Source of the DNA: Eledone cirrhosa
Lineage: Eukaryota
Assembly (NCBI GenBank): GCA_964016885.1
Contig: OZ024743.1
Span: 348,688,001 to 348,752,000 of the forward strand
DNA: 64,000 nucleotides
Reading direction: 5' to 3'
Positions 481-64,000 of the stretch are shown piece by piece. The notes under the pieces were generated by a model that saw only the letters and a program-made list of their open reading frames with translations, searched no databases and was not told the DNA's origin. A program made the position numbers and the translations under genes. Numbering within the stretch: position 1 is the stretch's first letter; each line of letters begins with the position of its first letter.

Positions 481-1476
481 TGTGTCTTTTATTTGGAATC
501 ATTTCTAATTAGTTAAGGTTAATGGCTAATATTTCCACTCACCATTACATTTGTTCAATGAGATTTCTAATTTCTCATTTTGATTTTGGCCTATCGTTCA
601 ATATTTGCCCGTCCATTTGTGGTCACATAATATATACAGCTTGCTAACATTCAGTGATCATCAGAGATAAGTTCTTCTATTAGATGAATGGATTCAATCT
701 GTGGACTGCAAATCAATGCTTAATTTAAAAATAATTCTTCGTTTTTGGTTTCGCGAAAGACAGCTTTCACTGAAAGCATTTAATGAATTACATTTGAGAC
801 ACAAGACATTTTAATTTTTAATGTGGGAGGGTTATAGTAGATTATATCAGCATCATTATATTAATAGCATTTCTTTTATTAACGTTAAGGAATGTCAGCT
901 GAGAATAGTAAAGTACAGAACTAGGAAATTATATATCATTTTATTAGCTCTTTACAAAATCCTTATGATCATTATTTATATTTAGCTGTAATACTGCCAC
1001 AAGAAACGTGCCTTGCAATGGCGTTGCAGATCAATAGTATGCGCCAAAATATTTTACTGATGATACCTTAAGTAATCTAGTTAATCGGAGGTATTTGAAC
1101 TTGAATCATTAACGACCGGAAATATTATTACAAATCAAGCACAGATGTTTTTCGCAATTGCTAAAGTTATTAAGTTATATATCATTACCGCTGCTGTTGT
1201 TTAGTAACTGGTCAGCTCTAGTTAAGTAACAACATAAAAAGATAAATGATGCTCTATTTCTAGGATGAGTGTCCCAGTATGGTCAAACTTCGCGTGAAAT
1301 TACGTTACTCAGAATTTCACAAACCCATGTTACCAGGACGCAATTCGATGTAGAATTCAACCGGAAACACTGGCTCTTTAAATTAGGAGTACAGGGAATC
1401 CGACGAGCTTCCAAACAGTTTCCGTCTACCAAATTTCACTCATGACTCGAAGCCGTTGTAAACTATCCATGAAATT

Positions 1477-1650
1477 ATTGTTTCTACGTTAGGCACAAGG
1501 CCAGCAATTACCCAGTGTATTACTGGTACTTTATTTTATCGACCCCGTAAGGATGAAAGGCAAAGTTAACCTCAGCGGGATTTGAACTCAGAATGGCAAG
1601 GGCCGTAACTCTATGCGTCAAAGCATGGCGTCTGACCCTCTACTAATACT
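1477..1650 (-). mobile_element. tRNA-derived SINE (main family)
   Basis: Matches family consensus: B box GAGTTCAAATCC, core TTTGCCTTTCATCCTTACGGGGTCGATAAAATAAAGTACC, tail GGCCTTGTGCC..AGAAACAAT, all on the minus strand. Confidence 0.9.
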
Positions 1651-2704
1651 TATGCAGTGAGAACAGAAACAGAATCTGAATTTCTTAAACAAATCATTTA
1701 GCCACACTGTTTCTGCATGCTTACTTTCTCTGATGAAATTGGCCTATAACTACATACATTTCAGCTTCTACCTTCCCACCTGTGTGTATCTGATAGTTTA
1801 TGCTGTTAAATACGTTTTAAGAAAGGAGTAGGCGATCTTAATGAAAGTCAATTGAGATTTTTAAAACGTCGAGCAGCTTCATGCAGACCCACATGTAATA
1901 TGGGTTAAAAGAGAAACAAAAGTCAGTATTTTACTATATTTAATTTCGTGTCGTATTGATTTCACCACAAACGTATTAAGCTAAGAGCCCTCTGAGAAAA
2001 TTAATGTCCATGTAGTTGGGTAGGTATATTCAACGTAACCACATAAGAATATATATATATATTCAAAAGAATTAAATATACAAAAGTGTCTAAATATTAA
2101 TTGTCAACGCTCCACCAATTTATTTAACTCCACAACACTCTGTTAACACCAATACCCACTATACACATTATATTTTCCTCTTCTTCTCCTCGACATTCCT
2201 CCTTCGATTTTTCTTTGCTTCCTAGAAATCACATCACTAGGTATATAAATTGTTTCTACGAAAAAATACTCTTACACGCACACATACCGTCACATACATT
2301 CCACCACATTCACATGTATATCATAGCTATAAGAACATTAACAAACAGAGGACAAGACAACGAACGGAAACAAAACAAAACGAAAAACAATGTTTCAAGG
2401 AGAAACCTTAAAACATTATTTAGAAAAAAAAAAAAATACGAACGAAGAACACAACACTCCATGCCCATCGGCCGTTGAGATGGACTTCGGCAATTTCGAC
2501 CCATACCAACGGTTCTGCTGATCCACCCGGGATCATAGTGTCTGAGATAATCCAAACGCTGTCCAGTGGAGTATGTGACGAGAGACGAAACGTTAATCTA
2601 TAGCAATTAATGTACAAAATACAGAAGTTTTTGTGATGTCGGAAAAAATGTGATGCCGCAGAGCAGGAGAAACATGAATGAAACACAGAGAAAAGGAAGA
2701 ACAA

Positions 2705-6866: not shown

Positions 6867-6928
6867 ATAGTGAATGTATGAATTAAGAGATTGTTATTAA
6901 TAATTTCATGTTTGAAATGATTTTTCAA

Positions 6929-7115
6929 ATAATTGTTTCTACTTTTGGCACAAGGCCAGCCATTAACCAGTACATTACTGGTACTTTATTTTATCGACCC
7001 CGTAAGGATGAAAGGCAAAGTTAACCTCGGCGGGATTTGAACTCAGATTGGAAAGGGCGGTAACTCTATGCGTCAAACCATGGCGTTCGACCCTCTACCG
7101 ATACTGCTAATCCAC
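6929..7115 (-). mobile_element. tRNA-derived SINE, full length
   Basis: Consensus match from head GTGGATTAGCAGTATCGGTAGAGGG to tail AGAAACAATTAT. Confidence 0.92.
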
Positions 7116-7685: not shown

Positions 7686-8192
7686 ATGGATTGGCAGTAT
7701 CGATAGAGGGTCGGACGCCATGCTTTCTTGCATAGTTACTCCCTTTATGATCTGAGTTCAAATCCCGCCTAGGTTAACTTTGCCTTTCATCCTTACGAGG
7801 TCGATAAAATAAAGTACCAGTAATACACTGGATTAATTGCTGGCCTTGTGCCAAAAGTAGAAACAATTATTAATTCGGTCTGAGTTCAAATCTGCCAAGG
7901 TTAACTTTGCCTTTCATCCTTACGTGGTCGATAAAATAAAGTACCAGTAATGCGCTGGATTAATTGCTGGCTTTATGCAAAAAGTAGAAACAATTATCAA
8001 TTTGGAGGTGGATTGGTAGTATCGGTAGAGGGTCGGAAACCATGCTTTGCAGCTATGCGTTACAGCCCTTTATGCTCTGAGTTCAAATCTTGCCGAGGTT
8101 ATCTTTGCCTTTCATCCTTACGGGGTCGATAAAATAAAGTAGCAGTAATGCACTGGTGTATTGCTGGCCTTGTGCCAAAGGTAGAAACAATT
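7686..8192 (+). mobile_element. Three head-to-tail SINE copies (about 7686-7872, 7876-7997 5'-truncated, 8008-8192)
   Basis: Core and tail repeated three times, each ending AGAAACAATTA. Confidence 0.92.
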
Positions 8193-8505
8193 AATTGGGA
8201 ATAGCATAAATCACTAAAGGAAAAATCTTATTTTTATATCATCTGCGTTATCGTACTTTCGGTATCTGTCTATCTTCTATATCAGTTCTTCATAACCAGC
8301 TTTCTGGTCGTCGTCTGTATGAATATTGCTGCCATTGTCAATATCTCTTTCCGCCATATAATCATAATCGTAATCAACATATCTACCAACATCCTCACCT
8401 ACACACCACCAGCATTCTCATTATCATGATGATCATCATCTTTTTCGTGATCATCATTATCATCGTCATCGTCGTGTCTTGATCATGATCATCATCATTA
8501 TTAAT

Positions 8506-8615
8506 GCCGCCGGGGTTAACTTTGCCTTTCATCCTTACGGGGTCGATAAAATAAAGTACCAGTAACACACTGGGTAATTTTGCTGGCCTTGTGCCAAAAG
8601 TAGAAACAATTATTA
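8506..8615 (+). mobile_element. 5'-truncated SINE
   Basis: Core plus tail ending AGAAACAATTATTAT. Confidence 0.9.
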
Positions 8616-8654
8616 TCACCGCCACAAACGTAATAACTACTACTACGACAACTG

Positions 8655-8685: not shown

Positions 8686-8727
8686 CACTACTACTACTAC
8701 TGCAACATAAGCAACAACAACAACAAT

Positions 8728-8913
8728 AATTACTGTTTCTACATTTGGTGCAAGGCCAGCCATACCCAGTGTATTACTGGTACTTTATTCTATCGACCCC
8801 GTAAGGGTGAAAGGCAAAGTTAACCTCGGCGGGTTTTGAACTCAGAATGTAAAGGGGCATAACTTTGTGCTGTAAAACATGGTGTCTGATGCTCTATCGA
8901 CATTGCCAGCACC
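8728..8913 (-). mobile_element. tRNA-derived SINE
   Basis: Reverse-complement consensus match; faces the 8506-8615 copy across a (CTA)n tract. Confidence 0.9.
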
Positions 8914-13025: not shown

Positions 13026-13105
13026 AATAATAATTATTTCTACTTTTGGCACAAGGCCAGCAATTACCCAGTGCATTACTGGTACTTTACTTTATCGACC
13101 CCGTA
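13026..13105 (-). mobile_element. 3' fragment of main SINE
   Basis: Tail and half core, (AAT)n-flanked. Confidence 0.85.
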
Positions 13106-13401
13106 ATAATACGGATATTAAAACGAATTCATCGAAGAACCTATACGCACACACACACGCACACACGAACACACACACACACACACACACGCAAACATTG
13201 TTTTACCTGCTGATCATGGGTTAGTGGCAAATCTTCTCTTATTACGAATATAAAGTCGTTACGAATATTAACAAGTCATTTGTCCATTTGTTACTGGGCA
13301 CTATAGTTGTGTCGGTCTTAAAGCATTGAAATAACGCTTTCCTAGCGGTCGACTCATGAGATGTGACTGGCACCAACATCTTTGTATTCATATATATATT
13401 C

Positions 13402-15476: not shown

Positions 15477-15661
15477 ATAATTGTTTCTACTTTAGGCACA
15501 AGGCCAGCAATTATCCAGTGCATTACTGGTACTTTATTTTATCGACCCCGTAAGGATGAAAGGCAAAGTCAACCTCGGCGGGATTTGAACTCAGATCATA
15601 AAGGGACGTAACTCTGCTTGAAAGCATGGCGTCCGACCCTCTACCGATACTGCCAATCCAC
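15477..15661 (-). mobile_element. Full-length SINE inserted in the left inverted repeat
   Basis: Consensus match; absent from the right arm at the equivalent position. Confidence 0.93.
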
Positions 15662-17551: not shown

Positions 17552-17600
<49 letters not shown>

Positions 17601-25902: not shown

Positions 25903-26072
25903 TTGGATTGGCTGTATCTGTAGAGCGTCAGACACCATGCTTTGCAACATAGAGTCATGGCCCATTACGTTCTGAGTTCAAATCCCGTCGAGGTTACCTT
26001 TGCCTTTCATCTTTACGGGGCAGATAAAATAAAGTACCAGTAATGCACTTGGAAAATTGCTGGCCTTGTGCC
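25903..26072 (+). mobile_element. tRNA-derived SINE (main family)
   Basis: Head, B box, core and most of the tail present. Confidence 0.9.
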
Positions 26073-27015
26073 ATTTTTGTGCAATCTTTTTAATATGTAT
26101 ATTTCCGGTATTCTGTTCCAAATCGACCCGTGTCCAATATAATGCAATAGTATAGATTAATTGGTATATAGTCGTTTGAAGTATTATTTGAAAGTCTGAA
26201 GCCGGGGATGACTTCACAACTACTGAACACTTATTAATTATTTGTGTGTATATTAATAATTGATTTGTTTTTAATTTCTATTTTATATGATACTATTTTA
26301 TTGTCAGTGCCTGTTTTTTTTCCATCCATCCTTGATGATCGCTTGTATTCTATCCTGGTTAACATACTGGAAGATCTAATGGTAACACTAGTGAATTGGC
26401 AGAGTCATTAGAGCATAGAACAAAATGAATTTTCAAATTTTCATTCATCCTTTGTGCTCTGATAAAATATATACGAAAAATTGCAGAAAACGTTAAAGCA
26501 TTGGAATTTCTTCTGGCGTTAACAGAAATGGAGAGACGTGTGGCTATGCAAACTTGTAGGAGATTTGATCATGTCCATATTCACTAAAACATGAAACGCC
26601 CGTTTTATGTTCTGAAAGTATCTCTTAATTTGGTATATAACCAAAATCACAACTTTTCTGCCAAAATCTGAGTAAACTATGATAGACCCGATTTTTGGTG
26701 CGAAATTAACGAAAAATTCGAAGCCCAATCACGCGATCTTCCTCAACCTGTCAAATTGTAGTTCAGACATATAGGAATATGAACCACATTTTTGGCATAA
26801 GCTTGAAAGAAATTCCCATCATAAATTAGCTGCGAGTTACAAGTGACATAGCAACACATGTTTCTATCTCTCTTAATTCTTGAAAATTATCATTCATGTG
26901 AAAACGATGAAAATATAATTTATTGTAAACAAACCTTCTTAATGACATCAACAGTATATTGAAAGTTTTTTCAAATATATATATATATCGGCAGTGAAAC
27001 ATATCTAATATGTAA

Positions 27016-32230: not shown

Positions 32231-32742
32231 TAAATGGAAAAAATGAAACGAAATTTAATTTCCTATTCTTGGTACGGCTGTTACTTAAATATAAGTATGT
32301 ACACGTACATACATATATGTATACAAGCGTACAGTAGTATGTATATATATATACATACATGCACACATATATATATGTACGTATGGATTCACCGAACATT
32401 TATTATAATGCTCGGTGTGTTTGTAAACAAACATCCCGTATTAAGCCGTAGTGTCTAGCAACCATCGTTGCTCGTTTGTTCAACACTGACAAAGGAACGC
32501 TGTACTAGTTTCAAGCTTATTAGCTATCGTCAGCAACGTATACCTTCCTGCCAGATTGTTGAACGTATATACTTACCTTATGCATATTAACGGCTGAGTA
32601 GCCCAATTTGCATATCGAGTGGGTTAATCGGCCGGGTGCACCGAAAACGATAAATGGAAAAAATGAAACGAAATTTCATTTCCCACTCTTAGTACGGCTG
32701 TTACTTAAATATAAGTATGTACACGTACATACTTATATGTAT
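32231..32742 (-). repeat. PLE 3' pLTR, 420-bp unit plus partial tandem copy, hammerhead at 32497-32539 (family A)
   Basis: TAAATGGAAAAAATGAAACG at 32231 and 32651. The hammerhead is on the same strand as the adjacent PLE RT. Confidence 0.85.
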
Positions 32743-32897
32743 ATAAGAGATCAAACAAGGAGTTTATTGATAATTGATTAGTGTGGTCTTTTAATCAAGG
32801 TGTAGTCCTATATTTATGAAGATCTAATTGGATAAATTAAAAGATGGTGGCCTAGTGTTATCTCCGACATTTGTTTTTATTTTTATTATTATTAGTA

Positions 32898-33080
32898 GTA
32901 GTAGAGTGTCGACGTCGTGCTTTCCAGCATAGAATTACGCCCCTTTATGGTCTTAGTTCAAATCCCGCCGAGGGTAACTTTGCCTTTCATCCTTACGAGG
33001 TCAATAAAATAAAGTACTAGTAATGCACTGGGATAATTGCTGGCCTTGTGCCAATAGTAGAAACAATTATTATTATTATT
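32898..33080 (+). mobile_element. Main SINE inserted in the PLE 3' region
   Basis: Consensus match with (ATT)n tail. Confidence 0.88.
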
Positions 33081-41816: not shown

Positions 41817-42000
41817 GTGGTGGACTGGCAATATCGGTAGAGGGTCGGACGCCATGCTTTCCAGCATAGTTACGTCCCTTTACCATCTGAGTTCAAATCC
41901 CGCCGAGGTTGACTTTGCCTTTCATCCTTACGGGGTCGATAAAATAAAGTACCAGTAATGCACTGGATATTTGCTGGCCTTGTGCCTAAAGTAGAAAGAA
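41817..42000 (+). mobile_element. Full-length main SINE with 14-bp TSD
   Basis: ATTATTTCATGCTG (41803-41816) and ATCATTTCATGCTG (42000-42013). Confidence 0.95.
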
Positions 42001-42319
42001 TCATTTCATGCTGCTTCACTTCACTTAGATGGGAAAAACGAGTGTTGTATATAATTCGAGGGCAGCATTCTCACATTCTCTGAGAATTATATTTATCGTT
42101 CACATGCTAATGGAATCATTGGCCACTTACACATTAATTTTATGAACAGGCTATTTTGTTATCTGAATAAAGCGAAGTACTCATCGTGTACACTCCAGTG
42201 TATATGATACGCAGTTCTGGCTAAGATCTTATGTGGCCTTTTCAACCAGTTATAATTTTTAAAAGCCTTACATAAGAATTGTATATTAATTTTGGTGCAG
42301 CTTGTATGCCAGAATATCT

Positions 42320-43908: not shown

Positions 43909-44634
43909 TAAGCGTAGACCTACCGATGGAGAAGGGCTCTCGCATTTAGCACTCTTAGCCCAGTTAAACGTTAACTATATGAAAACCACGTAATATACTT
44001 TGTTTTCATGTTAAGATATGGCGTTATCTATTTTCCCTCCCCCATATAACTCTAATGTTGTGGTGGTGTTGCAGACAAAGTTGACTACTGCGGTGCGAGG
44101 AGATGGCTGTCAATACTACTACAGCACCCCTGTCTGCTTGAGATGGCTACCTGCAGAATTCATTCCTACAACGATGACTTGCTATTTTCGACATTCAGCG
44201 AAAGTGATGTGAGAAGGGGGAGAGACAATCGCTAGGGTCGTACAAGGGTTTGCTTGTCATAGCAGGGACCTAAACTCATTCTGCCTGCCCCCCGGCATCA
44301 TAAAAAGATTTTCAAGAAAATGTTTTTGAATTTAAAAAAAAATATTTTATAGTTGCATGAAATTGTTTTTAAAGAGTTTTATACCGTCTGACGAGATCAA
44401 GCTAACGAAATGGGTAGGAAGAAAACTTTCTCCCCAAAGACTTCAGGTATTATGTGTCATGTAGATAAAAATGAAAATAAATACAACTGCAATGACCTTC
44501 GATCAATTTAAAATTAACCCTCTCTCTCTCTCTCTTTCTCTCTCTTTATAAATATATATATATATAATTGGATACTTTGTAAAATCGAATATCTGGCGGT
44601 ATGCAATCAGAATCGGCCTACTATATGAAATAAT

Positions 44635-44814
44635 TGTTTCTACGTTTGGCACAAGGCCAGCAATTACACAGTACATTACTGGTACTTTATTGGATCGACC
44701 CCGTAAGGATGAAAGACAAAGTTAACCTCGGCGGGATTTGAACTCAGACCGTAAAGGGACGTAACTATGCTGGAAAGCATGGCCACCGACTCTCTACTGA
44801 TACTGCCAATCCAC
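44635..44814 (-). mobile_element. Full-length main SINE with 10-bp TSD
   Basis: ATGAAATAAT at 44625-44634 and 44815-44824. Confidence 0.95.
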
Positions 44815-45189: not shown

Positions 45190-45223
<34 letters not shown>

Positions 45224-45455
45224 AGTATGCATGTATACGTACATACATATATGTATACAGACGTACAGTAGCATGCACATATATATATATACATATATAC
45301 ATACATATGCATACAGGTACACATACATATATGCACGTATCAGTTTAGCGGCGCTAACGTCGCTTTGTTCGTTTGTAAACAAACTGAACAGCCTGAATTT
45401 ATGCCATACGGTGTTAAGGCAACCACGTCACCTTTTTGTTCAACACTGACACGGG

Positions 45456-45500
45456 AACGATGTACTAGTTTCAAGCTTGTTAGCTATCATCAGCACCGTT
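45456..45500 (-). ncRNA. Type I hammerhead ribozyme (family A')
   Basis: Reverse complement of 45751-45795. Confidence 0.78.
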
Positions 45501-45750
45501 TACCCATCTGCCAGATAGTTGAACGTTCGAAAGTATATACTTTCCTTATGAAAATTAACGGCTGAGCAGCCTAATTTGCATATTGAGTGAGTTAAATCGG
45601 TGAAATTTCGTTTTCATTTTGTTTCAATTTATCGTTTTCGGTATGCCTGACCGATTTAACTCACTCAATATGCAAATTAGGCTGCTCAGCCGTTAATTTT
45701 CATAAGGAAAGTATATACTTTCGAACGTTCAACTATCTGGCAGATGGGTA

Positions 45751-45795
45751 AACGGTGCTGATGATAGCTAACAAGCTTGAAACTAGTACATCGTT
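45751..45795 (+). ncRNA. Type I hammerhead ribozyme (family A')
   Basis: AACGGTG-CTGATGA-T-AGCT(AACA)AGCT-T-GAAA-CTAG-TA-CATCGTT; predicted cleavage after GUA at 45788. Confidence 0.8.
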
Positions 45796-46212
45796 CCCGT
45801 GTCAGTGTTGAACAAAAAGGTGACGTGGTTGCCTTAACACCGTATGGCATAAATTCAGGCTGTTCAGTTTGTTTACAAACGAACAAAGCGACGTTAGCGC
45901 CGCTAAACTGATACGTGCATATATGTATGTGTACCTGTATGCATATGTATGTATATATGTATATATATATATGTGCATGCTACTGTACGTCTGTATACAT
46001 ATATGTATGTACGTATACATGCATACTTACATTTAAGTAAGTGCCATACTAAGAGTGAGAAATGAAATTTCGTTTTCATTTTGTTTCAATTTATCGTTTT
46101 CGGTATGCCTGACCGATTTAACTCACTCAATATGCAAATTAGGCTGCTCAGCCGTTAATTTTCATAAGGAAAGTATATACTTTCGAACGTTCAACTATCT
46201 GGCAGATGGGTA

Positions 46213-46257
46213 AACGGTGCTGATGATAGCTAACAAGCTTGAAACTAGTACATCGTT
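46213..46257 (+). ncRNA. Type I hammerhead ribozyme (family A')
   Basis: Identical to 45751-45795, 462 bp downstream. Confidence 0.8.
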
Positions 46258-46553
46258 CCCGTGTCAGTGTTGAACAAAAAGGTGACGTGGTTGCCTCAAC
46301 ACCGTATGGCATAAATTCAGGCTGTTCAGTTTGTTTACAAACGAACAAAGCGACGTTAGCGCCGCTAAACTGATACGTGCATATATGTATGTGTACCTGT
46401 ATGCATATGTATGTATATATGTATATATATATATGTGCATGCTACTGTACGTCTGTATACATATATGTATGTACGTATACATGCATACTTACATTTAAGT
46501 AAGTGCCATACTAAGAGTGAGAAATGAAATTTCGTTTTCATTTTGTTTCAATT

Positions 46554-46706
<153 letters not shown>

Positions 46707-47315
46707 ATACATACATATATATATATGTATATACGCACACACACATACACACACGTATATATATATATATATATAGGTAGAGAAAGAGAGAGATAGCGGG
46801 TGCGAGACTTATATAGTGAGGGAGGGAGAGACAGTGGGTGAGAGAGAGACAGAAAGAACGAGAATGTATATAATATACATTCCTACGTTTTATGTTGCCT
46901 TTCCGTTTTATGCGTGCTTCAAGGCTACCATGAGCTTACGCACCTCGATATGTGTGTAAGCCTTTTGTTTCATTTGTATGTTTAAAAAATGATATATATT
47001 TGTGTGTAGATGCGTGCGTGTACTGTGAGTCTCTATAAAGGTGCTTATTTTTATGTTCTTTTCTTGCTAATACAGGTGGCCGGCATATCTGTTTACATAT
47101 TAACGGAAGTGGCCCCGCACTGAAAACAGCCCCATAAAATTGAAACCCCTGTTGTCAGGGTAATAACATAGCTCCGCTCATTAGTACTGGTAGCAGCGAG
47201 AGATGAATTACGACATCAACAGCTATGCCATGTACCCTTAGGCTTCCTTGAAATACACCTTTATTTCCATATACAAGCTATCAATGAACCTACGTCCACC
47301 ATTTTTCTAATATCC

Positions 47316-47380
<65 letters not shown>

Positions 47381-47390
47381 GTTGTTATTA

Positions 47391-49212
47391 CTCTTTGAGT
47401 TTCAGTCATTGATGTTAGTTAACTGGAAAGTTTGTTGAAATGAATATCATGCCACTACCTGCACCCTCAGATATTCAGGACGTATCGGAGGGTTCTTGCT
47501 GTTTTCAGCAAGCATGCCTTTTGAAGCATTCCAAAAAGCGTGAAGGGGCGAATTTTCTTTAACCATCCCGGGAAACTTTTTGAGATAGTCCCTAGTGCGC
47601 CTATGACAATCGGGATCACTTTGACTTCATGGCAGTTCCAAATCCTTTTTACCTCCCACTTTAAGTCCTGGTATCGGTTAATTTTCTCCCTCTCCTTCTC
47701 TTGCACTCTCGTGTCGAATGGGCAGGCCACATCCACAATCAGGCACGATCTTTTTTCTTTGACCACAACCACCAGGTCAGGTCTATTGTGTTCCAGTTTC
47801 TTGTCCGTCTGTATCCTAAAATCCCACAGCATCTTCACCTGATCGTTTTCTATCACCGACTCTGGCTTATGCTCATACCACTTCTCAGAATGTGGTAAAT
47901 TGTTTACTTTGCGCAGGTGCCAGTGGATCACCCTGCCCATCACATCATGTCTCCAGCCCTTATAGTGAGTCTGGGCTAGGTGTTTACACTCGGATACAAT
48001 GTGAGCCACAGTCTCCTCTCTCTCTCCACAGATTCTGCGCAGTGGGCTAGCCTCCTCCTTGTAGATATGGTGTTTCAACCACTTCGTTTTGAGGGCCTGC
48101 TCCTGCGCAGCCATTAACATTCCTTCTGTAGCCTTTTTAAGGTCTCCTCTTTTCAACCAGTGCCATGTCTGTGGATCTCTAAATTCAGTGTTCTCAAAGA
48201 AGGTACTATGAAGGGATTTTTCCTGAAGGCTGCTCTTCCTCCTTGATGTTATTTCCTCCTTGGACATCCCCTGGCCTATTGTCCCCTCCTTCAGTACAGT
48301 TCTGAGCATTGGCTCCTTACTATCAGTCACGTATTTGTGTAGGTTGTTTTTCTCCATCTGAACACAGTCCTCTATGCTGATAAGACCTCTTCCACCCTCA
48401 GATCTCCTCAAGTAGAGTCTATCGACATTACTCCTCTTGTGGAACATGTTCTAGATAGTCAATAGCTTCCTAGTCTTCCTATCCATTTCTTTTTGTTTAG
48501 CAACATTCCATCTCAGAATTCCCGCACTGTACCTAATAATAGACACAGCTCGGGAATTTACTGCACTCATGGCATTCCTACTGTTCAGATATGACTTTAA
48601 TACGCTCCTTACTCTCCGAATGGATTCAGTTCTTATCAATTCCTTCATTTTTTTTCTTGATGTCATCAGGCTCCAGAACGCCCAAATACTTGTATACTTC
48701 TTCAGAATCAATTTCCTTTATCATCTCACCTGTTGGTACCTGGATTCCGTTACTTCTGCTCAACTTACCCCTCCTCATCGCAATGACTCCACACTTACTA
48801 ATACCAAATTGCATACATATATCATTGCTGAAAATACGGACAGTGTCAAGAAGCACATCTAACTCCTTCTCACTCTTCCCGAAGAGCTTAAGATCGTCCA
48901 TGAAGAGGAGGTGATTGATGGTAAGCCCCCCCCCCCTTCCCAACCTGTATCCTGCTCTCACTTTTCGCAGTACATTGGTCAGGGGCATCAGGGCAAGGAC
49001 AAACAACAGAGGGGACAGACTATCTCCCTGGAAGATACCTGTCTTGATCTTCAGGCTTCCCAAGGATTCTCCAGTTGATGTTAACTCTGTTTCCCAGGAC
49101 TTCATACTTTTGCCCAACAACTGCCTGATGTTATCTGCCACCTTGAAGATCTCCAGGCTTTTGGTGATCTAAGAATGAGGCACTATGTCAAATGCCTTTT
49201 TGTAGTCTATCC
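47391..49212 (-). mobile_element. 5'-truncated R4/Dong-type non-LTR retrotransposon (RT plus RLE), disrupted
   Basis: GIFQGDSLSPLLF, FMDDLKL, RICGEREETVAHIVSEC, RHD, PDLVV..LIVDVACP..EKINRYQDL. (TAA)n on both sides. Confidence 0.92.
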
Positions 49213-49234
49213 ATTATTATTATTATTATTATTA

Positions 49235-49985
49235 CAGTTGCATTTATCTTGCTTTATGTTCATACGAGTTATCACCAAGTCACAACCAGTGACCTCAAGA
49301 GACAACAAGGTCCGCCATGTTCAAGAAAGAACATACATATTCACACATGCATCTTTAGTGTTTAGACTTGTGATGTACTTATATTGACAGAATCTTCCTT
49401 AGTATATGGGCAGTTCCCACTAGTACTATCTTTTGTATTTCTCCTATACGCGGGTTTCCTGGGATTTGCGATAAGTAATCATTAGCTCCCTTAGGTATCA
49501 TTCCCAGAGCGCCTACAACCACTGGTATTGTTTTAGTTCTCAATTTCCACATTTTTCCAATTTCTATCTCCAGGTCCTTATACTTGCTCAATTTTTCAAA
49601 TGTTTTTATAGATACATTCTTGTCTATTGGAACAGACATATCAATTAGCAGGCATACCCTCTTTTGAAAGTCTTTCAATATTATATCAGGTCTGTTTGCA
49701 TCTATTTGTCGGTCTGTTTGGATTCTAAAGTTCCACAAGATTGAGATGTGATCATTTTCAAGTATGGGAGGTGGTTGATGCTCCCACAAATTCTTTTGAT
49801 GGGGCAGGTCAAAATGCTGACACATTATCCAATGTATGTATTGTGCAGCTCTGTCATGCCTGTTTAGGTATTCGGTTGGAGCTATAGGACTGCACATTGA
49901 AATTATATGGTCAATGGTCTCTGGTTGTTTTTTGCATACACGGCATAATGGCTGCACCCATTTTTAATTATGTTGGCTTGGTAAT
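49235..49985 (-). mobile_element. 3' fragment of a second R4/Dong-type family
   Basis: ORF 49379-49957: CRVCKKQPETIDHIISMC, RHD, RPDII..LIDMSVP..EKLSKYKDL; ends at (TAA)n 49213-49234. Confidence 0.9.
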
Positions 49986-49994
49986 TTTTTGTTG

Positions 49995-51130
49995 GCAGAC
50001 ACTGATGCCGTGGCTGATCATGCGCAGGCACGCGCTCAGGCTACGACATCTCCACCTCTTCCTCGACGGTGATCAGGTGTGGTCGCCGTTTGCTAGACAC
50101 GTATTTCCCCAGCTCGTTTCCTTGATGGAGCTGCAGTCCTGGGTCAAGCGAAGACCGAGAGGGAGCGCTTGGAAATTGGAATGTCTTCAGGCGCTCACAG
50201 CCCTCGACCAATCGGACAATGTGATCGGTGGAAACTCCACCTTGGCGTTCTATAGAGGATTAGTGGAGGGGAAGTGTGCGACGTACTTGTGGAAAGTCTA
50301 GACGTCGGCGAAAATCAAATAGCCAATCTCTTCGGAAGAAGTTTCGGGCCGGGTCCTATGGACAACTTCCAGAAATCCCTGGCCTGGCAGTGCTACCGAG
50401 GAGCTTTGCCAGTTCGGGATAAACTCTACAGGCATGGAGGTGCCGTCAGCCGGGCATGTCTGAGATGCGCGCAGGCCGACGAAACCGTCCTGCACGTACT
50501 CGTCCAGTGTCCGAGCATTGCTGACTTGTGGGTTTATGTCGAACACCTGCTGTCGCGTGTGGGACGGATCCAGCTATCAGCTGAGTCCATCGCGAGGATT
50601 GCGCCGCCCTTTTCCTTAAGCCGGGAAGGGCAGGCAGTTTTTATCTGTCTGGTGGCCATGGCGAAAGAGATAGTATGGTGGACACGTTTGAAAGGGCAGA
50701 AGACGAGCACTTATCTCTTCGGTGATGCCCTGATTAACTTTTTCAAATTTCATTTGAAAAGGAAAATCAGGGTAGAAAGGAAGTGCTCTCTTCCCAGCAT
50801 TTTGTTGAAAGATGGGTGAGAGAGGCAAGAATAGCCCGAGTGAATGGGCCTACTCTGAGTATGTGTCTGTAAATTAAAGGTGGAAAACTGGGAGAGGGCA
50901 CTTGCCCTGGTGGTCAGGGTCTATGTGGCTTTTTAATGGGCTTTCTCCACAAATGTCCCTCGGAAGTCTCCCCCCTATTGGGGAATGTTTTCATTGTTCT
51001 ATTATTACATCCTCTGTTTCTTGTTTTTTACACGCAGAAATGCCCATTTGTACGGCCCTGTATTGTCATGCACTGTCCTTAATGTCTACTTTATGTAAAC
51101 CCTTGTAAACCTTTTTATTTTCATTATTGT
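49995..51130 (+). mobile_element. 3' fragment of Tx1/L1-clade LINE
   Basis: MPWLIMRRHALRLRHL..., CLRCAQADETVLHVLVQC; paralogous to 54000-54945. Confidence 0.9.
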
Positions 51131-53129: not shown

Positions 53130-54091
53130 ACAGAACTGGGGATATATAGATATATGTATAAATGTATGTATAAAACAGAAGTGTGGATATATAAATATGT
53201 GGGTGCCACATTGGACTTTTTGAAAAAAGATGGTATATGCAAACGCACACACACACATTCAAAAATCCCGAGCTACCTAAATCCAGTGCCCTAATCAAAA
53301 CATATCTGGGATTTAAAGCGGGATTATATCGATTACACATTTTATTGGTCAGTGTTATAATTCGCCTGCTCATATCAAAACGAAAGACGCTCCGGCAATC
53401 TTCACGTGGTGGAAGTGTTTGTGATTATATCTGTATCGGATCTGTTGAACTCTCGACGTCATAGAATCTTCGACTTCCAACATAAGGCATTAAAAACCTT
53501 CTCTCAGTACCACCCTGACTAGCCTAGGGTTAGGTATTGTATCTCCGTATCCATTCCACACTAATTAACTCACTCCTTACAGCAGATTTCTTTTCGTGGC
53601 CTTTATTTTTTCCCGAATAATTCTATTTCTGATGAAGTGCAAATGAATACATGTAGACTGTTAAATAATTGTGCGGAAACATATGTTAAAGATAGATTAC
53701 ATAGTAAATTATTATTCTTGCCATCGCTTCCTGCATAGTTATTTCTTAATCTTTTATTCCAACCATATAATAATAATAATTATAATAATAATAATGATCT
53801 CTTTATTGGCCACAAGGGCTGACATCAAGAAAAACATTACAGGCGGCACAGGACTGTACATGGCGGTGCGATGTGGGAATTGTGCGTGTAAATATTTTGA
53901 TTATTTATATAAGAAAAGAAAAAAAAAAGGACATATAAACATATATATATATATAAACAATAAAAATGAAAATTGAAACAATTAAAAATTCCCCAATAGG
54001 GGGAGGGGGGGTGAAACCTCCGAGGGTTACTCGTGGCGAAAACCACACAAAAGACCACGGCCACCCTGACAACCAGGGCAAGCGCCCTCTC

Positions 54092-57000
54092 TCAACTTTT
54101 CCATCTCTCAAAATACAGACGTACATTCACGCACCTTTCAACAAACTTGCTAGAAGGCAGCACTTGCCTCTCCACCCTGATTTTGCTCTTCAAGTGAAAC
54201 TTGAAAAAGTTAATTAGGGATTCGCCGAAGAGGAAAGTGTATGTCTTTAACCCTTTTAACCTTGTCCACCACACAATCTCTTTCGCCTTGGCCACCAGGC
54301 AGATGAAAACCGTCTGCCCTTCTTCCTCGAAAGAAGACGGCGAGACCATCTGCACAATGGACTCAGTCGACAACCGTATCAGACCTACACGCGACAGCAT
54401 CTGTTCGACATAGATCCACAAGTCAGCAATGCTCGGGCACTGAACGAGTGCGTGCTCGACGGTTTCGTCGCTCTGCGCGCATCTCGGACAAGCTCGGCTG
54501 ACGGCACTTCCGTGCCTGAAGAGCTTATCTCGAACCGGCAGCGCTCCCCGGTAGCACTGCCAGGCCAGGGATTTTTGGAAGTTATCCATAGGTCCCGGAC
54601 AGAAAGTTCTCCAGAAGAGAGCATACAGCTGATCTTCTTCGACACCCAGAATCTCTCCGAGAATGTCGTCGCACTTCCTCTCCACTAGTTCTCTACAGAA
54701 CGCCGAGGTGGATGTTCCACCGATACTGGTTCCCAGCTGGCAGAGGGCAGTGAGCGCCTGGAGACATTCCAGTTTCCAAGCGCTATCCCTCGGTCTTTTT
54801 CTGACCCAGGACTGCAGCTCCGTCAAGGAGACGAGCTGTGGGAAAACTTGCCTGGCGAACGGCGACCACACCTGTTCACCATCAAGGAAGCACCAGAGAT
54901 GTCGCAGCCTCAGCGCATGTTTGCGCATCATCAGCCATGGCATGCCCACTCCTCCACGCAGCGGGTGTTGACAGCAGATGGATCGTCTGACCATGGGAGC
55001 GTGTCCCTTCCACAAAAAGCGGAAGAGTAGGCGCTCTATTTTGGTGAGAGTTGGGCTGGAGCAAGGGACGACGGTGAGGCGGTAGCAGATGACTGATGTG
55101 ATGTACGCATTCGCCACCTCCGCCCGGCCTTTCAGCGACAGCTTCCTCTCGGCCCATTTCTGGGTGAGGGAGGCCACTCTGCTCGTCGCCTCGTTCCAGT
55201 TTTTCCTCCATCTGGAGGTCCGGTCCGAACCACACCCCAAACAATTTAACCGGTCCGTCCGTCCAACGCCCCTCGACGCTGTCGAACGGCATGGACATGC
55301 CTCTCCATGTGCCGAGCTGCAAGCCCACCGACTTTTCCTGGTTTATCTTTGCTCCTGTCACCGCTTCGTATTCCTAGGGAGCGGTGCCGAGTATCTGGAC
55401 GTGTCTGGTGCTCGACACCACCACGGTGACGTCGTCAGCGTAATCCGACTCGGATTTCCCGCATCCTAGTTCGCATGGGACGCCCCTCATCGCCCCCAGT
55501 TTGTGCAGTAACGGCTCGAGATCCAATACGTACAAGAGGGACGAGAGGGGACAACCTGGCGGACTGAGCGCATGATGATGAACGGCTGCGACAGGTGACC
55601 GTTCACCCTCACAACTGAGCAGATGTCGCTGTACATTGCTGCATTCCAACCCCTGAAAACGGGCCCGAAACCAGCTGCCTCGAGGACCGCCGCCAGGTAC
55701 CGATGGTCGACCCTATCGAATGCTTTGGATTGATCCAAGTTGATAAGGGCCCCACCCTTGCCAGGTTCCTTAACCACCGTCTCTATGATATATCGCATGA
55801 GGTGGAGGTTGTCGTGTATGAATCTGTCCGGAATGGCGCATATCTTCGCCTCTCCCCCCAGACCCTTGACGACAAGCGCCAACCTCGTTGCTAACACATT
55901 GGCCAAAATCTTGAACTCTGCGTTTAGCAGGGCTATGGACCTGAAATTATCGATAACATCCCCCTTGTGCGGGTCTTTTCTCAGCAGCGCCACTGCTCCC
56001 TGGCTCACAAAGCTGGGAATGCTCCCGTTCTGCTGCCAGTTGCAGTAGACGTCTGCCAAGAGGTCACCGAACAAGTCTGGCATAAATGCATAAAGCATGA
56101 AGGGCAAACCACCCACACCTGGCGATTTACCCCTTGTGCAGTTAGCCATCGCTTCCCGTATTTTACCGGCTGTTATTGGCTTTTCGCAACACTGTGCTGC
56201 GTCGTCGAGGGCCGAGGCAGTCCGTCGAGGTACGCACTGAAGTCCATGCCCCGATCCGGGCCGCCGCTGCTCCCGAACAGTTCAGCAAAGTGCTTCTGAA
56301 AAGCTTCACACATCCGCTCGGGTTCGAACATCACGCACACGTTTTGGTCAGACAAAGACCGAATTTAGGCTTTATTGCCACGTCGCGCCTCTGCCATCCG
56401 GTCCCATTGGACGGCTGTCCTAAACACCTTTTCTAGCTTTCTGACTATCTCTCCCTCTACTCTATTTTCCTCTGTCACTACTCCTTTGCTAAACCTAATC
56501 AACTCTACTTTAATTGCCCTCTTCGGTGAATCGCCACCTGTTGTTGACGACCGCTCCCGTCAACGCCCGCTTAACTAATACACTAATCCGGTTTCTGTAG
56601 GTTTGCGCGCCGGGAAAGACGCGTTCAGCTTCCAGTAACCAGGCCCTTGTCTATGAAGTCTGACTATGTCGATCTCACAGATCACACATTTGTGGTCTGT
56701 GTAGTCGACTATATTAAATTGTGGACAACTTATACTAACCTTATCTAGTTCTCTGCAGAATACCCTATCGAGATACGATCTGGATGACACGATGCGGTTG
56801 GTCCATATCCACATTGGCACATTCGGGTGATCCAGTCGATACTTGTCTGACAGTTCAAAACGTCTGAGCAGGTTGGTGACGCTCTTGCACCCTGCTCCCC
56901 TATCCACTAGCCCCACACGATCCCAGCGTGCATCCAAGATACCGTTCCAGTCGCCCACTATCACTAAAGAGCGGGACGTTCCAAGAAAGGTCTCTAGACG

Positions 57001-57373
57001 GCTGAAGAAATCTGGCCGTCCTGCCCCTATTGGGGCGTAGACGGCTACTAGTCTGAAAGCATTGCCTTCGCTGCCGGTCACGTCCAGCACCACCGACTTA
57101 CCTTCTGGGTCTAGGAAGATCGGCCGTATGGCGAGATCCAAGCCATCTCCGAAAAAGGACGGCAACCTCTCCCTCCGATCCTGGACGGCTGGGAGATGCG
57201 TATACATCGTAGCCGCCGAAGATCGGTGCGAAGGCTTGTGCTTCGGAGATTCTGGTTTCACTGATGGCCACCACATCTATGTTTGGTGACCTGAGGTCGT
57301 TGAGCAGGTGACCCTGCTTCCAAGATGACCCCAGGCCACGTGCATTTATACTGCCTATTCTGAGTACGGCCAT
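54092..57373 (-). pseudogene. LINE ORF2 (APE endonuclease, RT, C-terminal zinc finger), multiply frameshifted
   Basis: IGSINARGL..DVVAISETR, GDWN, SYLDRVF, DHK, GYWKLN, KSPG.GGLP, NFRSIALLNAEFKILA, LDQSKAFDRVDH, YADD, CPRCAQSDETVEHALVQC. Confidence 0.93.
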
Positions 57374-57405
57374 GTTGGATGAGAAACGGGGCAAGTGAGA
57401 AAGGG

Positions 57406-59420
57406 TCACTTACCTTGATCGTGTGGTGAAGGGACAGTAAAACCGTCACTTTCGCTGGTCATGGGTGTTTCCAAGAGGATGTCAGTGTATATGCTCTTGG
57501 TAACCGACCCTCTGAAGTCTCCAACTGCGTTGGGGAATTTTTGTTTTATAGGTTTGTACTGTTCTATTGAGATTTCGATGATGCTTATGTTTGTCGGGAG
57601 AGTTCTTGTGTTGGTGTAGTAGTTTTTTTCTGTGATGTCTGTGTGCTGCTTTATATATTGTATGAGTTCTTTTTTTGCCATGTTTATGGCTGTTTACTTT
57701 TGGGGGGAGGGGTGATTTTGTTGCTGTTTTCTTTTTGTTGCTGTTTGGTCTGTGTGTCTTGTAGTGTTTGCGTTGTTGGTGTTTGTGGTGATGCTGTTGG
57801 TGGTGTGGTTGTTGTTGTCAGTTGTGCTTGTCTTGGTGATGTTGGTGGTGTTGCTGCAAGTTTCCTTGCTGCCTTTACCCCTCTTTGTATGCCTTCGCTT
57901 TTGGAGGGTGAATCTAAGGGTTTTTTGTTTTTTGTTTTTTGTGGGAGACCTTTTTCCACTTCACTCCCGCCTCAAACTCCATATCGGATTCTGTGGCGTC
58001 TGGGAGGGGTATGTGCTCCACGGCTGTTGGTGGTTGTAGTGGAGCCCTCTTCGGCAATTTAGTTGCTGGTGTAGCTACTTCAAATGTAGCTATTGGTGTT
58101 GCCGCTACTGATGATGATGCTTTAGTTATCCGTGGCCTTGTTACGGTTGCTACGGTCGTTGCCCTCCTACTTACCGTGGAGGGGCTTCTTCGTTTGTTGC
58201 CTGTCCTGCTCTTGGTAGCAGCGGACCAGGTATTGGAAGGAGAAGGGCCCCTCTTCGCTGTCTTCTGCGGGCAAAAGGCCTTGAGGTGACCCTTCGACCC
58301 ACAGAGATAACATTTTGGCCGTCTTCCTTCTACACTTATAGGGAGTTGCAGTCCTTCTTCGATGTCTATGATATCGAGGATAGCCTCGATACATTCCTGG
58401 TCAGTTTGTATAAGCATTTGCATGCCTATACCTGACTAGTTCTCTCTCCCTATTTTTCTACTTGCAGTATGGCCGCCCTGTTCTCAATTCCAGCAAGGAC
58501 AGACGCGGCGAGCCAAGGTATGGGCACGTCGGGTGGGACCTGGGTCACTTTGACCCTCACAATTTTCTGCCCGCAGTAGGAGGGCACCAAGACTATCTCC
58601 TCACTCTTTAGGGTTTCCAAAGAGTGAGGGGGGTGGTGAAAAGTACGTCTACTTTGGCGTACTTTCTGCCACGTGTGATGTGGGTTTTCCGTGCCCAGAC
58701 GCACCCCAAGGCCTTTGGGATTTGAGCCTCCGTGGCTCTCTCCACTCGATGTGAGACTTTGCTTACGGTGCAGTAAGTCACCGTCCGTAGCTGCTGGTCC
58801 TTGAAAAAATCGGGTGGAGGTTTCAGGGAAACTCTATTTGTGCTTCTTGTCACCATGGCCCTTGCGACTGCCATCTCCTCCTCTGTGACTAACACTGTCT
58901 CGATATTTGGGGCGACACCTGCAAAAGAAGTGGTCCCTTTTTCAGCAGCACCACTATTGCTGCCGCTACTGGTCTTACTGGTGGTGCTGAGATCGCTATT
59001 ACAGGTATCGGTGTCATTGTTGTTGTTTTCGCTGGTACAGTTGTTGGTGTTGTTGTTGTTGTTTTCGTTGATACTGTTGCTGTTGTTACTGTTATTGTGG
59101 CTGTTGTTATTATTGTTGCTTTTGTTGATACTGTTCCTACTATTATTGTTGTTGTGGCTGTTGTTATTGTCATTGTTATTGTCGTTCTCGACTTTACCGC
59201 TGTTATTTTTGTTGTTGCTGTTGTTATTGATGGTGTTGTTGTTGGTGTTGTTGTTGGTGTTATTGTTGGTGTTGTTTGTGTTAGAAATATTTGTTAATTT
59301 TAAATCTGTAACAATCTTTTTTTCCTTTGTAATATTCTCGTTTATATTTACCTCCGCTGATAAAATCTCCCTCTCTCTGTGTTGTCTGACAGCGCTCTCT
59401 CTCTTTCTTGTTTTATCCAT
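57406..59420 (-). pseudogene. LINE ORF1 (gag-like, CCHC knuckle, Asn-rich N-terminus), frameshifted
   Basis: MDKTRKRE start, poly-Asn tract, GRRPKCYLCGSKGHLKAFCP zinc knuckle. Confidence 0.82.
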
Positions 59421-60299
59421 GTTGAAATTTTTCAAAAGAATTTTTTTACACAAATACGAATACGACACCCCGTAAAGGGGTGCCGTATTATTTACTAGTG
59501 AACCCCTGTATTAGGTGGGTCACTTCTTCTAAACTTTTACCTAATTTAAAACTTGAATAAAAGGTTTAGAACGGTTGAAAAAAAGGTAAACCGTTGAAAA
59601 AAATTGGAGGCGATAAGAAGCGTGGCTTCACCAACAATAATAATAATAATAATAATAATAATAAGGGAAGAATACGCACATGGGGTATAGGGTCGTATGG
59701 AATCGCTCCCGTAATTTTTTGATTTTTTACATATTTAAAACAATTGTGATAGAATAATTCTTATTACAAATGGGACATCAGATACCAGTCTTAGCTCTCA
59801 GGAAGTTGCAACGCAAAAAATTATGCTATAGGGCTCCAATATTTAATATTTAATTTTGTATCAGAAATGTTATAGTAAAAAAATAAAATGGTTACAAATG
59901 GTCACAAATGGAAGAAAACAGCCCAAAATTTCACCACCAACACCACCACAACTACCACAAAAAATTTAGCTTGATACAACAACACCATCACAACACAATC
60001 CCTACTTCCCTCGTAGCTAAAATCAAAAATAGCAGCAGCAGCAACAACAACACTAGTAACCGATGTTACTGGTCTTGAAAGACAAAAAGGAAAAAAACTA
60101 AAACTAAATCAGACATTCAAACATTACAATGAAAGTTATGTTTATTTTTTAAAGTTTGTATCTATTTGTTTGTTTATTTATTTATGTTCGTCTACAGTGT
60201 GATGGTGCCACGCTAAAATCACCGGGGGTGATGAAATCACCGTTGGTTATGTAACCGTACATTCACCAATCCTCGATATGAGTGTTTAAATGTCGAATC

Positions 60300-63200
60300 T
60301 AAACAGTTCGAATAACGGTGAAGAGTAGACTGGAACATCATGTGAAAGTCACTCGCCCAGCAAGTGCTTCCTGGCCCAGCAGTAGGGACCTGGCTGCCCT
60401 CCAAATACTGCTGGTGTTGGAGAAAGAAGAAGAAGGATCGGGACAAGAACAAACTGGACGAAATAATTGAATGTTACCTGAAGAGTAACCCCATGGAGAA
60501 AAAGCTATAGGAAACGGATGCATAACATCTGGAACGAGATTGGTCTATTTAAATTAGATGAACAAAAATTGGCCGGGCAGGCTCGGGTAATAAGAACTAA
60601 TGGTTGGATAAGCGTGTTGGAACTGGAGGAACTGAACAGAGAGATTAAGTTGGAAATGGAGAATGGAGTAAGTCAGGCAAGCGAGCCAGTAGGAAATGAA
60701 GGTGAAGAGGTTTAGAGACCTGAGGAAGCATACGAAAGAGACAATGATCTGAATGCTGAAATACATAACTGTTTCTACTTTAGGCACAGGGCCAGCACAT
60801 ACCCAGTGCATTACTGGTACTTTATTTTATCGACCCCGTAAGGATGAAAGGCAAAGTCAACCTCGGCGGGATTTGAACTCAGATCGTAAATGGACGTAAC
60901 TATGCTGGAAAGCATGGCGTCCGACCCTCTACCGATATTGCCAATCCACAATACATAGCATCTGCAACCAAGATACGGCCATTGAGGAAATGAATGCTGA
61001 CGGGCGAGGACAAGATTTGGTTGATATCCTGAACTTAGTGGTAGATGAAATGAACAATGATAGTGGAAAACCTATGAACCTAAGATTTGTAGACAGGAAG
61101 AAGTTAAAAGAAACAAGAGCTAAAGTAAACAAAGTCATCCCATACCTTGAGGCGGGGAACCTTCACAAATGCAACAATATCCTTAAAGCAACAGCAAATG
61201 CGGTGAGGAAATTACTTGGCATAAACCGAGAGGAAACAACAAACAAGAATGATAAGAACCTTGGTGGAAGAAACGACAGAATGGTCAAATCAAGGAAATG
61301 AGAAAAGACATTGGACAACTTGAGTCCCTACTGAATGGGACATTACAAAACATAGACACTAAAAATAGATTGGAAATAATGTACAAAACTAAGGGGAAAA
61401 AGCTAAATATTATCATAGAGGAACTGAAGCAACGCATTGTAGCAAAAAGTGCAAAGATTAGGCGGTATGGGAGCAGAGTCAGTCAGTATAGACAGAACCG
61501 CATGTTTGACAACAGGCAGAATATGTTCTTTGGACAGCTTGAAGGGAAAGAAAGAGGCAACGACTTGATCCCTGAGGCGGAACAGTCTAAGACATTGTGG
61601 AGAGGAATATGGGAGCAGGATGTTGAACATAATGGTCAGGCAGTGTGGATTGAGACAGTACAAAAGCAGATTAGTGAACAAACACACCAACAAACTGATT
61701 TGAGTATCACAGTTGAAACTCTTAAGGGGCAGGCCAAACAACTAACCAACTGGAAATCACCAGGCCCAGATGGTGTGCGGTGGTATTGGATTAAAAATAT
61801 AACATCCCTCCACCATAAACTGACAACAATGTTCAATGACTGCTTGATGTCGGGTGAGGTACGAGAGTGGTTGACAAAAGGTACCATAGTTCTGGTAATG
61901 AAAGACCGAATCAAGGGTAATGATGTTACTAACTATAGACCAACACATGTCTGTCCATAATGTGGAAACTGTTAACAAGCATTGTGTCTGAGGAAATCTA
62001 CCATCACCTCCACATAAACAACTTGTTACCGGACGAACAGAAAGGATGCCGAAAGAAGTCCCGTGGTACAAAAGACCAGTTACTTATTGATAAGATGGTA
62101 ATGAGGAATTGCAAGAGGAGACACACTGGTCTTGCCATGGGATGGATAGATTACAAAAAGGCATTCGACATGGTACCTCATTCTTGGATAACCAAAAGCC
62201 TAGAGATATTCAAGGTGGCAGATAACATCTGACAGTTGTTGAGCAAAAGTATAAAGTCCTGGGAAACAGAGTTAACATCGGGTGGAGAATCCTTGTGAGG
62301 CGTGAAGATCAAGAGAGGTATCTTCCAGGGAGATAGTTTGTCTCTTTGTCCTTGCCCGTTACCCTGACCATGATATTGCGAAAGGTGAGAGCAGGATACA
62401 AGTTGGGAAAAGGAGAGCTTACCATCAACCACCTCCTCTTCCCGGACGATCTTAAACTCTTTGGGAAGAGTGAGAAGGAGTTGGATGTAGTTGTTGAAAC
62501 TCTCCGTATTTTCAGCAATGATATATGTATGCAATTTGGTATTAATAAGTGTGGAGTCCTAGTGATGAAGCGGGGTAAATTGAGCAGAAGCCACGGAATC
62601 CATGTACCAACAGGTGAGATGATAAAGGAAATTGACACTGAAGAAGGATACAAATATGTAGGTGTTCTTGTGGTAGATGACATCAAGAACAAAAAAATGA
62701 AGGAATTGATAAGATCTGAGTATATTAGGAGAGTAAGGAACGTATTAAAATCACATCTAAATAGTAGGAATGTCATAAGTGCAGTGAATTCCCGAGCTGT
62801 ATCTATTATTAGGGAATTCTGAAATGGAATCTTGCTGAACAAAAAGAAATGGATAGGAAGAGTAGGAAGCTAATGACTATCTACAACATGTTCCACAAGA
62901 GGAGTGATGTCGATAGACTCTACTTAAAGAAATCTGAAGGTGGAAGAGGTTTTATCAGCATAGAGGACTGTGTTCAGATGGAGAAAAACAACCTGCACAA
63001 ATACTTGCACAAACACTTGAGCCAATACTCAACATTGTACTGAAGGAGAAGACAATTGACCAGGGATGTCCAAGTAGGAAATAACCTTCATGAAAAACCC
63101 CTTCATAGTACCTTCTTTTAGAAAATTGAATTTAGAGATCCACAGATATGGAACTGGTTAAAAAGAGGAGACCTTAAAAATGCTACAGAAGGAATGCTAA

Positions 63201-63893: not shown

Positions 63894-63910
63894 AATAATA
63901 ATAATAATAA

Positions 63911-64000
63911 TAATTGTTTCTACTTTAGGCACAATTCCAGCAATTACCCTGTGCATCACTGGTACTTTATTTTATCGACCCCGTAAGGATGAAAGGCAAA
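63911..64000 (-). mobile_element. Main SINE (partial, runs off the window), tail-to-tail with Dong across (AAT)n
   Basis: Tail and core match. Confidence 0.9.

Follow-up and report, generated by a model that had tools for sequence, protein, structure and literature searches.

The window, by which we mean the whole 64-kb stretch of Eledone cirrhosa DNA analyzed here, contains 15 copies of one SINE plus one small fragment, a Tx1-like LINE that is full-length but broken, and a truncated copy of a sister Tx1 subfamily. The two LINE copies and the parts of the first that matter below are listed here.

53796..59635, minus strand: Tx1-like LINE of subfamily A, full-length but broken, with 5' UTR, ORF1, ORF2 and a 3' UTR of ~300 nt
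53809..53819, minus strand: predicted 3' hairpin of the LINE, a 3-bp stem with a 5-nt CUUGU loop
53796..53808, minus strand: fixed-length spacer between the hairpin and ATT, containing AATAAA and a GAAA-type hexamer
~53768..53795, minus strand: (ATT)n that closes the LINE at its 3' end, being tail, target repeat or both
59636..59663, minus strand: (ATT)n adjoining the LINE 5' end
50005..51130, plus strand: 5'-truncated, C-like copy from a sister Tx1 subfamily, its 3' end damaged

As (ATT)n lies on both flanks of the LINE, the element is housed in an ATT array. Read on the minus strand, its predicted hairpin comprises a stem half at 53819-53817, the loop at 53816-53812 and the second stem half at 53811-53809, followed by AATAAA at 53807-53802 and the end of the element at 53796.

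The SINE copies are distributed over both strands as follows.

1473..1653, minus strand: SINE copy
6928..7114, minus strand: SINE copy
7687..8193, plus strand: head-to-tail stack of three SINE copies
8503..8616, plus strand: SINE copy, 5'-truncated
8719..8879, minus strand: SINE copy
13026..13106, minus strand: SINE copy, 5'-truncated
15477..15660, minus strand: SINE copy
25920..26073, plus strand: SINE copy without the last part of its tail
32891..33065, plus strand: the SINE copy singled out in the initial annotation, with its hairpin at 33042-33052 and its end at 33065, then ATT
41821..42005, plus strand: SINE copy flanked by a visible target duplication
44629..44813, minus strand: SINE copy flanked by a short target duplication
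60760..60948, minus strand: SINE copy
63899..64000, minus strand: 3' part of a SINE, facing a Dong/R4-like element tail to tail

The SINE measures ~183 nt, with an older form of 212 nt, and has the traits of its class: it is short, non-coding and present in high copy number, with variable 5' truncation and target duplications. A random sample of 1.2 Mb (120 evenly spaced 10-kb stretches) yielded 231 matches covering 34,211 bp, ~2.9% of the sampled DNA, which extrapolates to roughly half a million copies genome-wide; where we call it the commonest SINE we mean among the SINEs found, the copy count having been made for this SINE alone. Words resembling A and B boxes were recognized by eye in its head, ARAGORN predicted no tRNA in the whole window and an Rfam scan of one SINE copy returned no tRNA match. 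We presume that the SINE is akin to the Nin/Deu group, which has a conserved central domain. SINE tails of ~25-35 nt, truncated at the hairpin, also stand alone in the genome (loci L025, L038 and L066), and a 27-nt Tx1 end, likewise truncated at the hairpin, lies within a SINE tail at L330:~1495-1525.

Further repeats share the window. Near-identical repeats occupy 45216-46780, and pieces related to them lie at 17537-18049 and 32217-32747; they form a direct pair of 494 nt (99.8%) and an inverted pair of 386 nt (99.5%) and are part of a dispersed repeat. At 9104-10759 there is a degenerate tandem repeat of ~1.6 kb, the plus strand of which has long open frames. Two Dong/R4-like families with (AAT)n ends are found at 47372-49214 (minus strand), 49200-50000 (minus strand) and 60950-63914 (plus strand), and elements of this type occupy the ATT runs of SINE and Tx1 copies in a tail-to-tail arrangement.

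The Tx1 lineage and its targets

The broken ORF2 of the window copy retains pieces of an AP endonuclease, a reverse transcriptase (RT) and a zf-RVT domain, in that order (Pfam Exo_endo_phos, RVT_1 and zf-RVT). The best named relative is a coral 'Transposon TX1 149 kDa protein' (32%, E 5e-87); among solved structures, human L1 ORF2p matches an intact sister ORF2 best (E 2e-52). Longer homologues of the C-terminal piece of the window copy were sought as well, which yielded two unnamed proteins. Judged by its predicted ORF1 and by an ORF2 that combines an AP endonuclease, an RT and a zinc motif at the C terminus, the LINE belongs to the L1/Tx1 group. A preference for microsatellite targets is a Tx1-like trait, and here it is ATT for subfamilies A and C and CTAT for D.

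Related Tx1 subfamilies, A to G, were recovered; their 3' termini are (ATT)n in A, B, C and G and CTAT-type repeats in D, E and F, and a hairpin followed by AATAAA is kept in all of them. In an RT tree built without reference Tx1, Kibi, Koshi or L1 rows, subfamilies A-E form one group (support 92/98, not starred). Copies of D, E and F insert into and end in (CTAT)n with the 3' hairpin retained (loci L134, L154, L156, L179 and L070), and this is a target switch inside one lineage. With the last 516 nt of the window LINE as query, all 30 loci retained from the best 40 of 2,834 candidates scored, the window locus included and the tail being part of the query, end at the identical place, and 26 of the 30 carry the exact motif noted initially, so that Tx1 ends do keep it. 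Exact 32-nt 3' ends of Tx1C number 6,284 in a genome-wide pattern search, and one Tx1C copy has open ORF1 and ORF2 of 714 and 1,204 aa. The subfamily G pattern gave 568 matches, 20 of which were examined; copies of G are mostly 79-88% alike pairwise.

Tx1 subfamilies are stacked head to tail, with a spacing of ~6 kb among C ends (G000 C1; L303-L309), and each full-length 5' end directly adjoins the (ATT)n of the preceding copy. Tx1C has two unrelated 5' UTRs. A variant of Tx1C carries a hairpin ~30 nt ahead of the ORF1 start (L248:1736-1767, counted on the minus strand; also L215, L030, L004, L042, L217 and L264), whose loop is identical to that of the 3' hairpin or one letter off and whose GGGC/GCCC stem leads into an A-rich stretch and then ATT; similar hairpins occupy the same place in subfamily B, in the other C variant and in a D-like copy. 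This 5' UTR hairpin might serve as a second site for protein binding or represent a captured tail. As a source of the SINE tail it scores mostly 13.7 bits, inside the chance range of the tail profile.

A shared 3' end

The initial annotation reported that the LINE and the SINE share a terminal motif placed at the same distance from (ATT)n, and aligned the two ends with gaps. The end strings and the motif are real, and the match is better than was noted: MAFFT aligns the subfamily A end to the SINE end in a single register with no gaps, which supersedes the gapped alignment. The strict motif occurs at eight sites in the window, seven of them in SINE copies and one in the LINE. The copy near 33050 reads as described, yet with its AATAG spacer it represents a minor form (5 of 122 short-form tails) and lends no extra support.

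Over the last 24 nt the SINE is identical to Tx1A at 16 positions (15 for the window copy), to Tx1C at 14, to Tx1D at 17-18 and, after a 1-nt shift, to Tx1B at 14. Tx1G, which equals Tx1A but for one letter, agrees with the short SINE form at 17/24 by manual count and with the older long form at 18/24. CR1, a second CR1-like family (CR1b), RTE and two Dong families reach only 3-11/24, so that no sampled CR1, RTE or Dong family betters the Tx1 match. The highest raw identity thus belongs to Tx1D, which ends in CTAT repeats rather than ATT. A match to the SINE tail of at least 16/24 was seen at 5 of 82,880 LINE-body positions and at 33 of 2,394,480 positions in reversed genomic DNA, and over 36 trials (9 families x 4 registers) we estimate a probability of ~0.002, which would put the sequence match beyond chance. 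Significance of a profile score drawn from reversed genomic DNA was too generous a measure; since Tx1 bodies yield chance matches up to 16 bits, above the 14.9 bits of subfamily A itself, it was replaced by plain identity with the LINE-body null. The LINEs were sampled rather than censused (1.2 Mb at random plus targeted loci, surveyed by tblastn), and the comparison covers nine families and further Tx1 subfamilies. Duplicate rows (L001, L203, L211, L218, L268, L271 and L272) were removed ahead of the counts, and L301-L310 were excluded from, or unused in, the spacer comparison and the counts of neighbors at Tx1 ends.

By sequence, the shared terminal stretch is shorter and more diverged than in typical SINE/LINE pairs. 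Bivalve pairs have 35-61 bp in common at 72-95% identity, according to the text available from PMC11481361. The same genome offers a classic SINE/RTE pair, in which a second tRNA-type SINE of ~330 nt with (ATG)n ends (L037:6733, L053, L101, L103, L129 and L179) has 40 nt in common with an RTE family at 95-97%; therefore the SINE/Tx1 match is old or structural and not a fresh capture. A genome-wide search for the SINE stem followed by AATAAA gave 13 matches, all 13 of them SINE copies, and no Tx1 element with the SINE's own stem. As no present Tx1 end has that stem, the SINE tail was probably acquired from an older member of the Tx1 lineage, with the structure preserved.

What the two ends have in common is more evident in structure than in letters. 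A stem of 3 bp is predicted around the CUUGU loop in both LINE and SINE tails, and the distance from the loop start to the first ATT is 21 nt in both; in the SINE forms the letters of the spacer vary and its length is constant. At the middle of the stem the LINE has a C-G pair and the SINE a G-C pair. Among eight Tx1 ends and four SINE forms the three inner pairs are intact in 36 of 36 cells, and two of the three have changed on both sides. The covariation score of 0.405 was reached by none of 500 shuffles and slid controls gave at most 0.133, a result that amounts to about two independent double changes in related sequences, with the structure read from the same sequences. Folding energy was dropped as support for the hairpin, as the tails fold like their shuffles (z -0.63 to +0.25, no excess). 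A predicted stem that is conserved through compensatory changes is what a stringent SINE/LINE pair displays, and its conservation supports recognition of this kind.

Insertion signature and age

Target duplications of at least 9 nt flank 90 of 198 SINE copies (57/127 full and 33/71 truncated), against 4% and 14%, respectively, in shuffled pairs; part of the set comes from loci chosen for their LINE ends, and random stretches or the window supplied 96 of the 127 full copies. Of the 53 duplications that are not simple sequence, 39 begin at the first base past the element; they are 9-20 nt long and nearly all start with ATTA(T). As the duplications begin there, the ATTAT that follows the SINE is mostly target DNA, and the (ATT)n run of the SINE itself has a median of 2 units in the 198 copies. 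Accordingly, the initially noted equal distance to (ATT)n stands as the 21 nt from loop to ATT in both elements, but most SINEs have no run of their own. The shared (ATT)n itself was rejected as evidence of partnership, because a young CR1-like family also ends in it, behind a different hairpin.

ATTAT occurs within 30 nt upstream of 111/198 SINE copies and of 22/37 Tx1 copies of subfamilies A and C (11/20 and 11/17, respectively; p 0.72 for SINE vs Tx1), the background being 5.6% of 11,880 windows. For CR1 the corresponding numbers are 4/34 (p 1e-6 vs SINE) and, for duplications of at least 9 nt, 2/35. Duplication counts for Tx1A and unselected Tx1C were set aside as uninformative (40% vs 37% in shuffled pairs), since ATT arrays mimic duplications in shuffled pairs. 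Outside arrays, Tx1C could be followed at short-tailed ends, of which the genome has 119; 28 were examined and 17 were truncated within reach. Five of these 17 have a duplication from the first base (L274, L279, L282, L289 and L296), two lie in ATT arrays and ten are without a clear duplication. At least three ATT units stand upstream of 14/37 Tx1 copies vs 40/198 SINE copies (p 0.03), the ATT runs of Tx1 being longer, which may reflect a longer AUU tail on the LINE RNA. Of 132 Tx1 ends of the ATT type, 22 precede a SINE on the same strand and 2 a SINE on the opposite strand.

In 96 copies the SINE clusters differ from their majority sequences by 2.2, 4.9-7.6 and 15%. The corresponding divergence is 2.3% for Tx1A, 2.4% for Tx1C and 0.6% for CR1, the Tx1A and CR1 copies being best matches and hence biased towards young ages. 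The ages of the SINE and Tx1 overlap, and the divergence of Tx1G fits the middle SINE waves. Insertion sites and age, the two comparisons that the initial annotation had asked for, thus both agree with Tx1.

The driver of the SINE

We conclude that the SINE is very probably driven by a Tx1-like LINE lineage; that this lineage drives it and also recognizes the shared 3' hairpin we regard as probable, recognition being predicted from the conserved structure. The partner is likely the ATT-targeting Tx1 lineage as a whole and not the broken copy of the window. The partnership put forward initially is therefore supported, with the lineage rather than this copy as driver, and its stringency is deduced from the conserved tails. 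We propose that the SINE would be transcribed from its putative internal A and B boxes and that the Tx1 ORF2 protein would bind its hairpin. The ORF2 endonuclease would then nick the strand opposite ATTAT, the freed DNA end would pair with the AUU past the spacer and prime reverse transcription at a fixed point, and a second cut 9-20 nt off would create the duplication.

A Tx1 protein might instead move the SINE by pairing of AUU with the target alone, the likeness of the hairpins being a relic or chance. We consider this unlikely, and yet it accommodates the low identity of the tails and their ordinary folding energy, and target data reveal the endonuclease that cuts and not the RNA feature that is bound; moreover, SINEU is credited to Tx1-Mar without a common tail in the available text of PMC4494074. 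Against such a relaxed mode, double changes keep the stem in both the SINE and Tx1C, and the spacer holds its length while its letters vary. CR1 RNA likewise ends in AUU and yet CR1 copies are devoid of the Tx1-type signature, and the SINE junction is constant at one base.

It is less probable still that a LINE outside our sample, such as L2, I/Nimb, another CR1-group family or an extinct element, donated the tail and drives the SINE. The number of families compared leaves some room for it, as does the RT search, in which the best 150 of 118,944 candidates were scored and 30 loci proved to be one CR1 family, and the accessible text on molluscan SINEs names CR1, L2, Nimb and RTE as partners (PMC4758252, PMC5786205 and PMC11481361). 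However, no recurring element other than the SINE and Tx1 ranked above the Tx1 ends in 1.83 Mb, among the matches listed; the genome-wide matches to the SINE stem with AATAAA belong to the SINE itself, and a SINE active at ~2% divergence requires a partner that is young and abundant.

The young CR1 family has the identical (ATT)n end and many open frames of 945 aa, but as a driver it is highly improbable: its hairpin differs, its identity to the SINE tail is at most 7/24, at 0.6% divergence it is younger than nearly all SINE copies, and the insertion signature, with few duplications and little upstream ATTAT, largely refutes it. This very young family was seen at loci L071-L100 and L181-L210. 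Dong/R4 elements use the same arrays, follow 28 of 132 Tx1 ends and are known to target TAA repeats (PMC3812793, as far as its text was available), yet they are just as poor candidates, as they insert on the opposite strand with (AAT)n ends (the antisense word upstream in 8/11 copies, ATTAT in 0/11) and match at most 9/24 of the tail.

Returning to a Tx1 lineage that recognizes the hairpin, we lean, by a modest degree, towards a joint reading in which Tx1 would choose its RNA by a tiny hairpin and a fixed-length ruler instead of poly(A), and one SINE would exploit this. The signal would have survived the switch between ATT and CTAT targets, and the SINE would have used it from its oldest (15%) to its youngest (2%) form, coming to ~3% of a 3-Gb genome. 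If true, stringent recognition in the L1 clade would extend to animals beyond plants and algae, and the idea that it is the ancestral state of the clade would gain support. The analysis points to a likely engine for the commonest SINE found here, and the pair offers a compact animal system for asking whether L1-clade proteins recognized a specific RNA end first and poly(A) later. Such a test would be direct, because the signal is ~24 nt, stem variants exist naturally and there are copies with open ORF1 and ORF2.

As far as the accessible texts go, parts of this system have counterparts. Octopus genomes likewise have abundant tRNA-SINEs (OK, OR1 and OR2; tRNA-Deu and tRNA-CORE) and recently active L1-Tx1, CR1, RTE and Dong-R4 elements (PMC4758252, PMC4824008, PMC8967140 and PMC13282606); the octopus repeat literature seen lists L1-Tx1 and SINEs and pairs none (PMC13282606 and PMC8967140), and the portions of the molluscan SINE literature consulted mention no Tx1 tail (PMC4758252, PMC4824008, PMC5786205 and PMC11481361). 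An animal Tx1/SINE pair with a common 3' hairpin was not found in the open literature; repeat databases or supplements could hold one. Kibi, Koshi and the crocodilian Tx1 families are APE-type and insert into microsatellites, as here, but their targets are TC, TTC, TTCC and TTTC as opposed to ATT (A, B, C and G) and CTAT (D and E), and no SINE partner is mentioned for them in the available text (PMC4494074 and PMC3812793).

The nearest animal precedent is crocodilian SINEU, for which Tx1-Mar was named as partner from target preference and overlapping age, as we do here (Kojima 2015, PMC4494074). In the part of that report at hand, SINEU combines snRNA heads with poly(A) tails, and the 3' part of SINEU-1 was found in no LINE, whereas the present SINE has a putative tRNA-type head, no poly(A), a common hairpin and a microsatellite word as target. 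Among 58 pairs three L1-tailed SINEs are described, in maize and a green alga, in the text seen of Ohshima's surveys (PMC3472496 and PMC3747384). Maize ZmSINE2/3 and LINE1-1_ZM have a common 3' hairpin with a conserved loop and compensatory stem changes, as in our elements, and the excerpt available reads this as stringent recognition (Ohshima 2012, PMC3472496). Chlamydomonas SINEX-3 and L1-1_CR share a 3' end, which terminates in poly(A) there and in ATT here (Ohshima 2013, PMC3747384, in the portion accessible). By the same partial accounts the plant and algal pairs have ~50-80 nt in common, while our pair is from an animal, involves a Tx1-like lineage and has ~24 nt. Stringent pairs of the L1 clade and a Tx1-driven SINE are thus already in print, and, as read from its sequences, the animal pair with a shared hairpin would be a new variant in the literature found.
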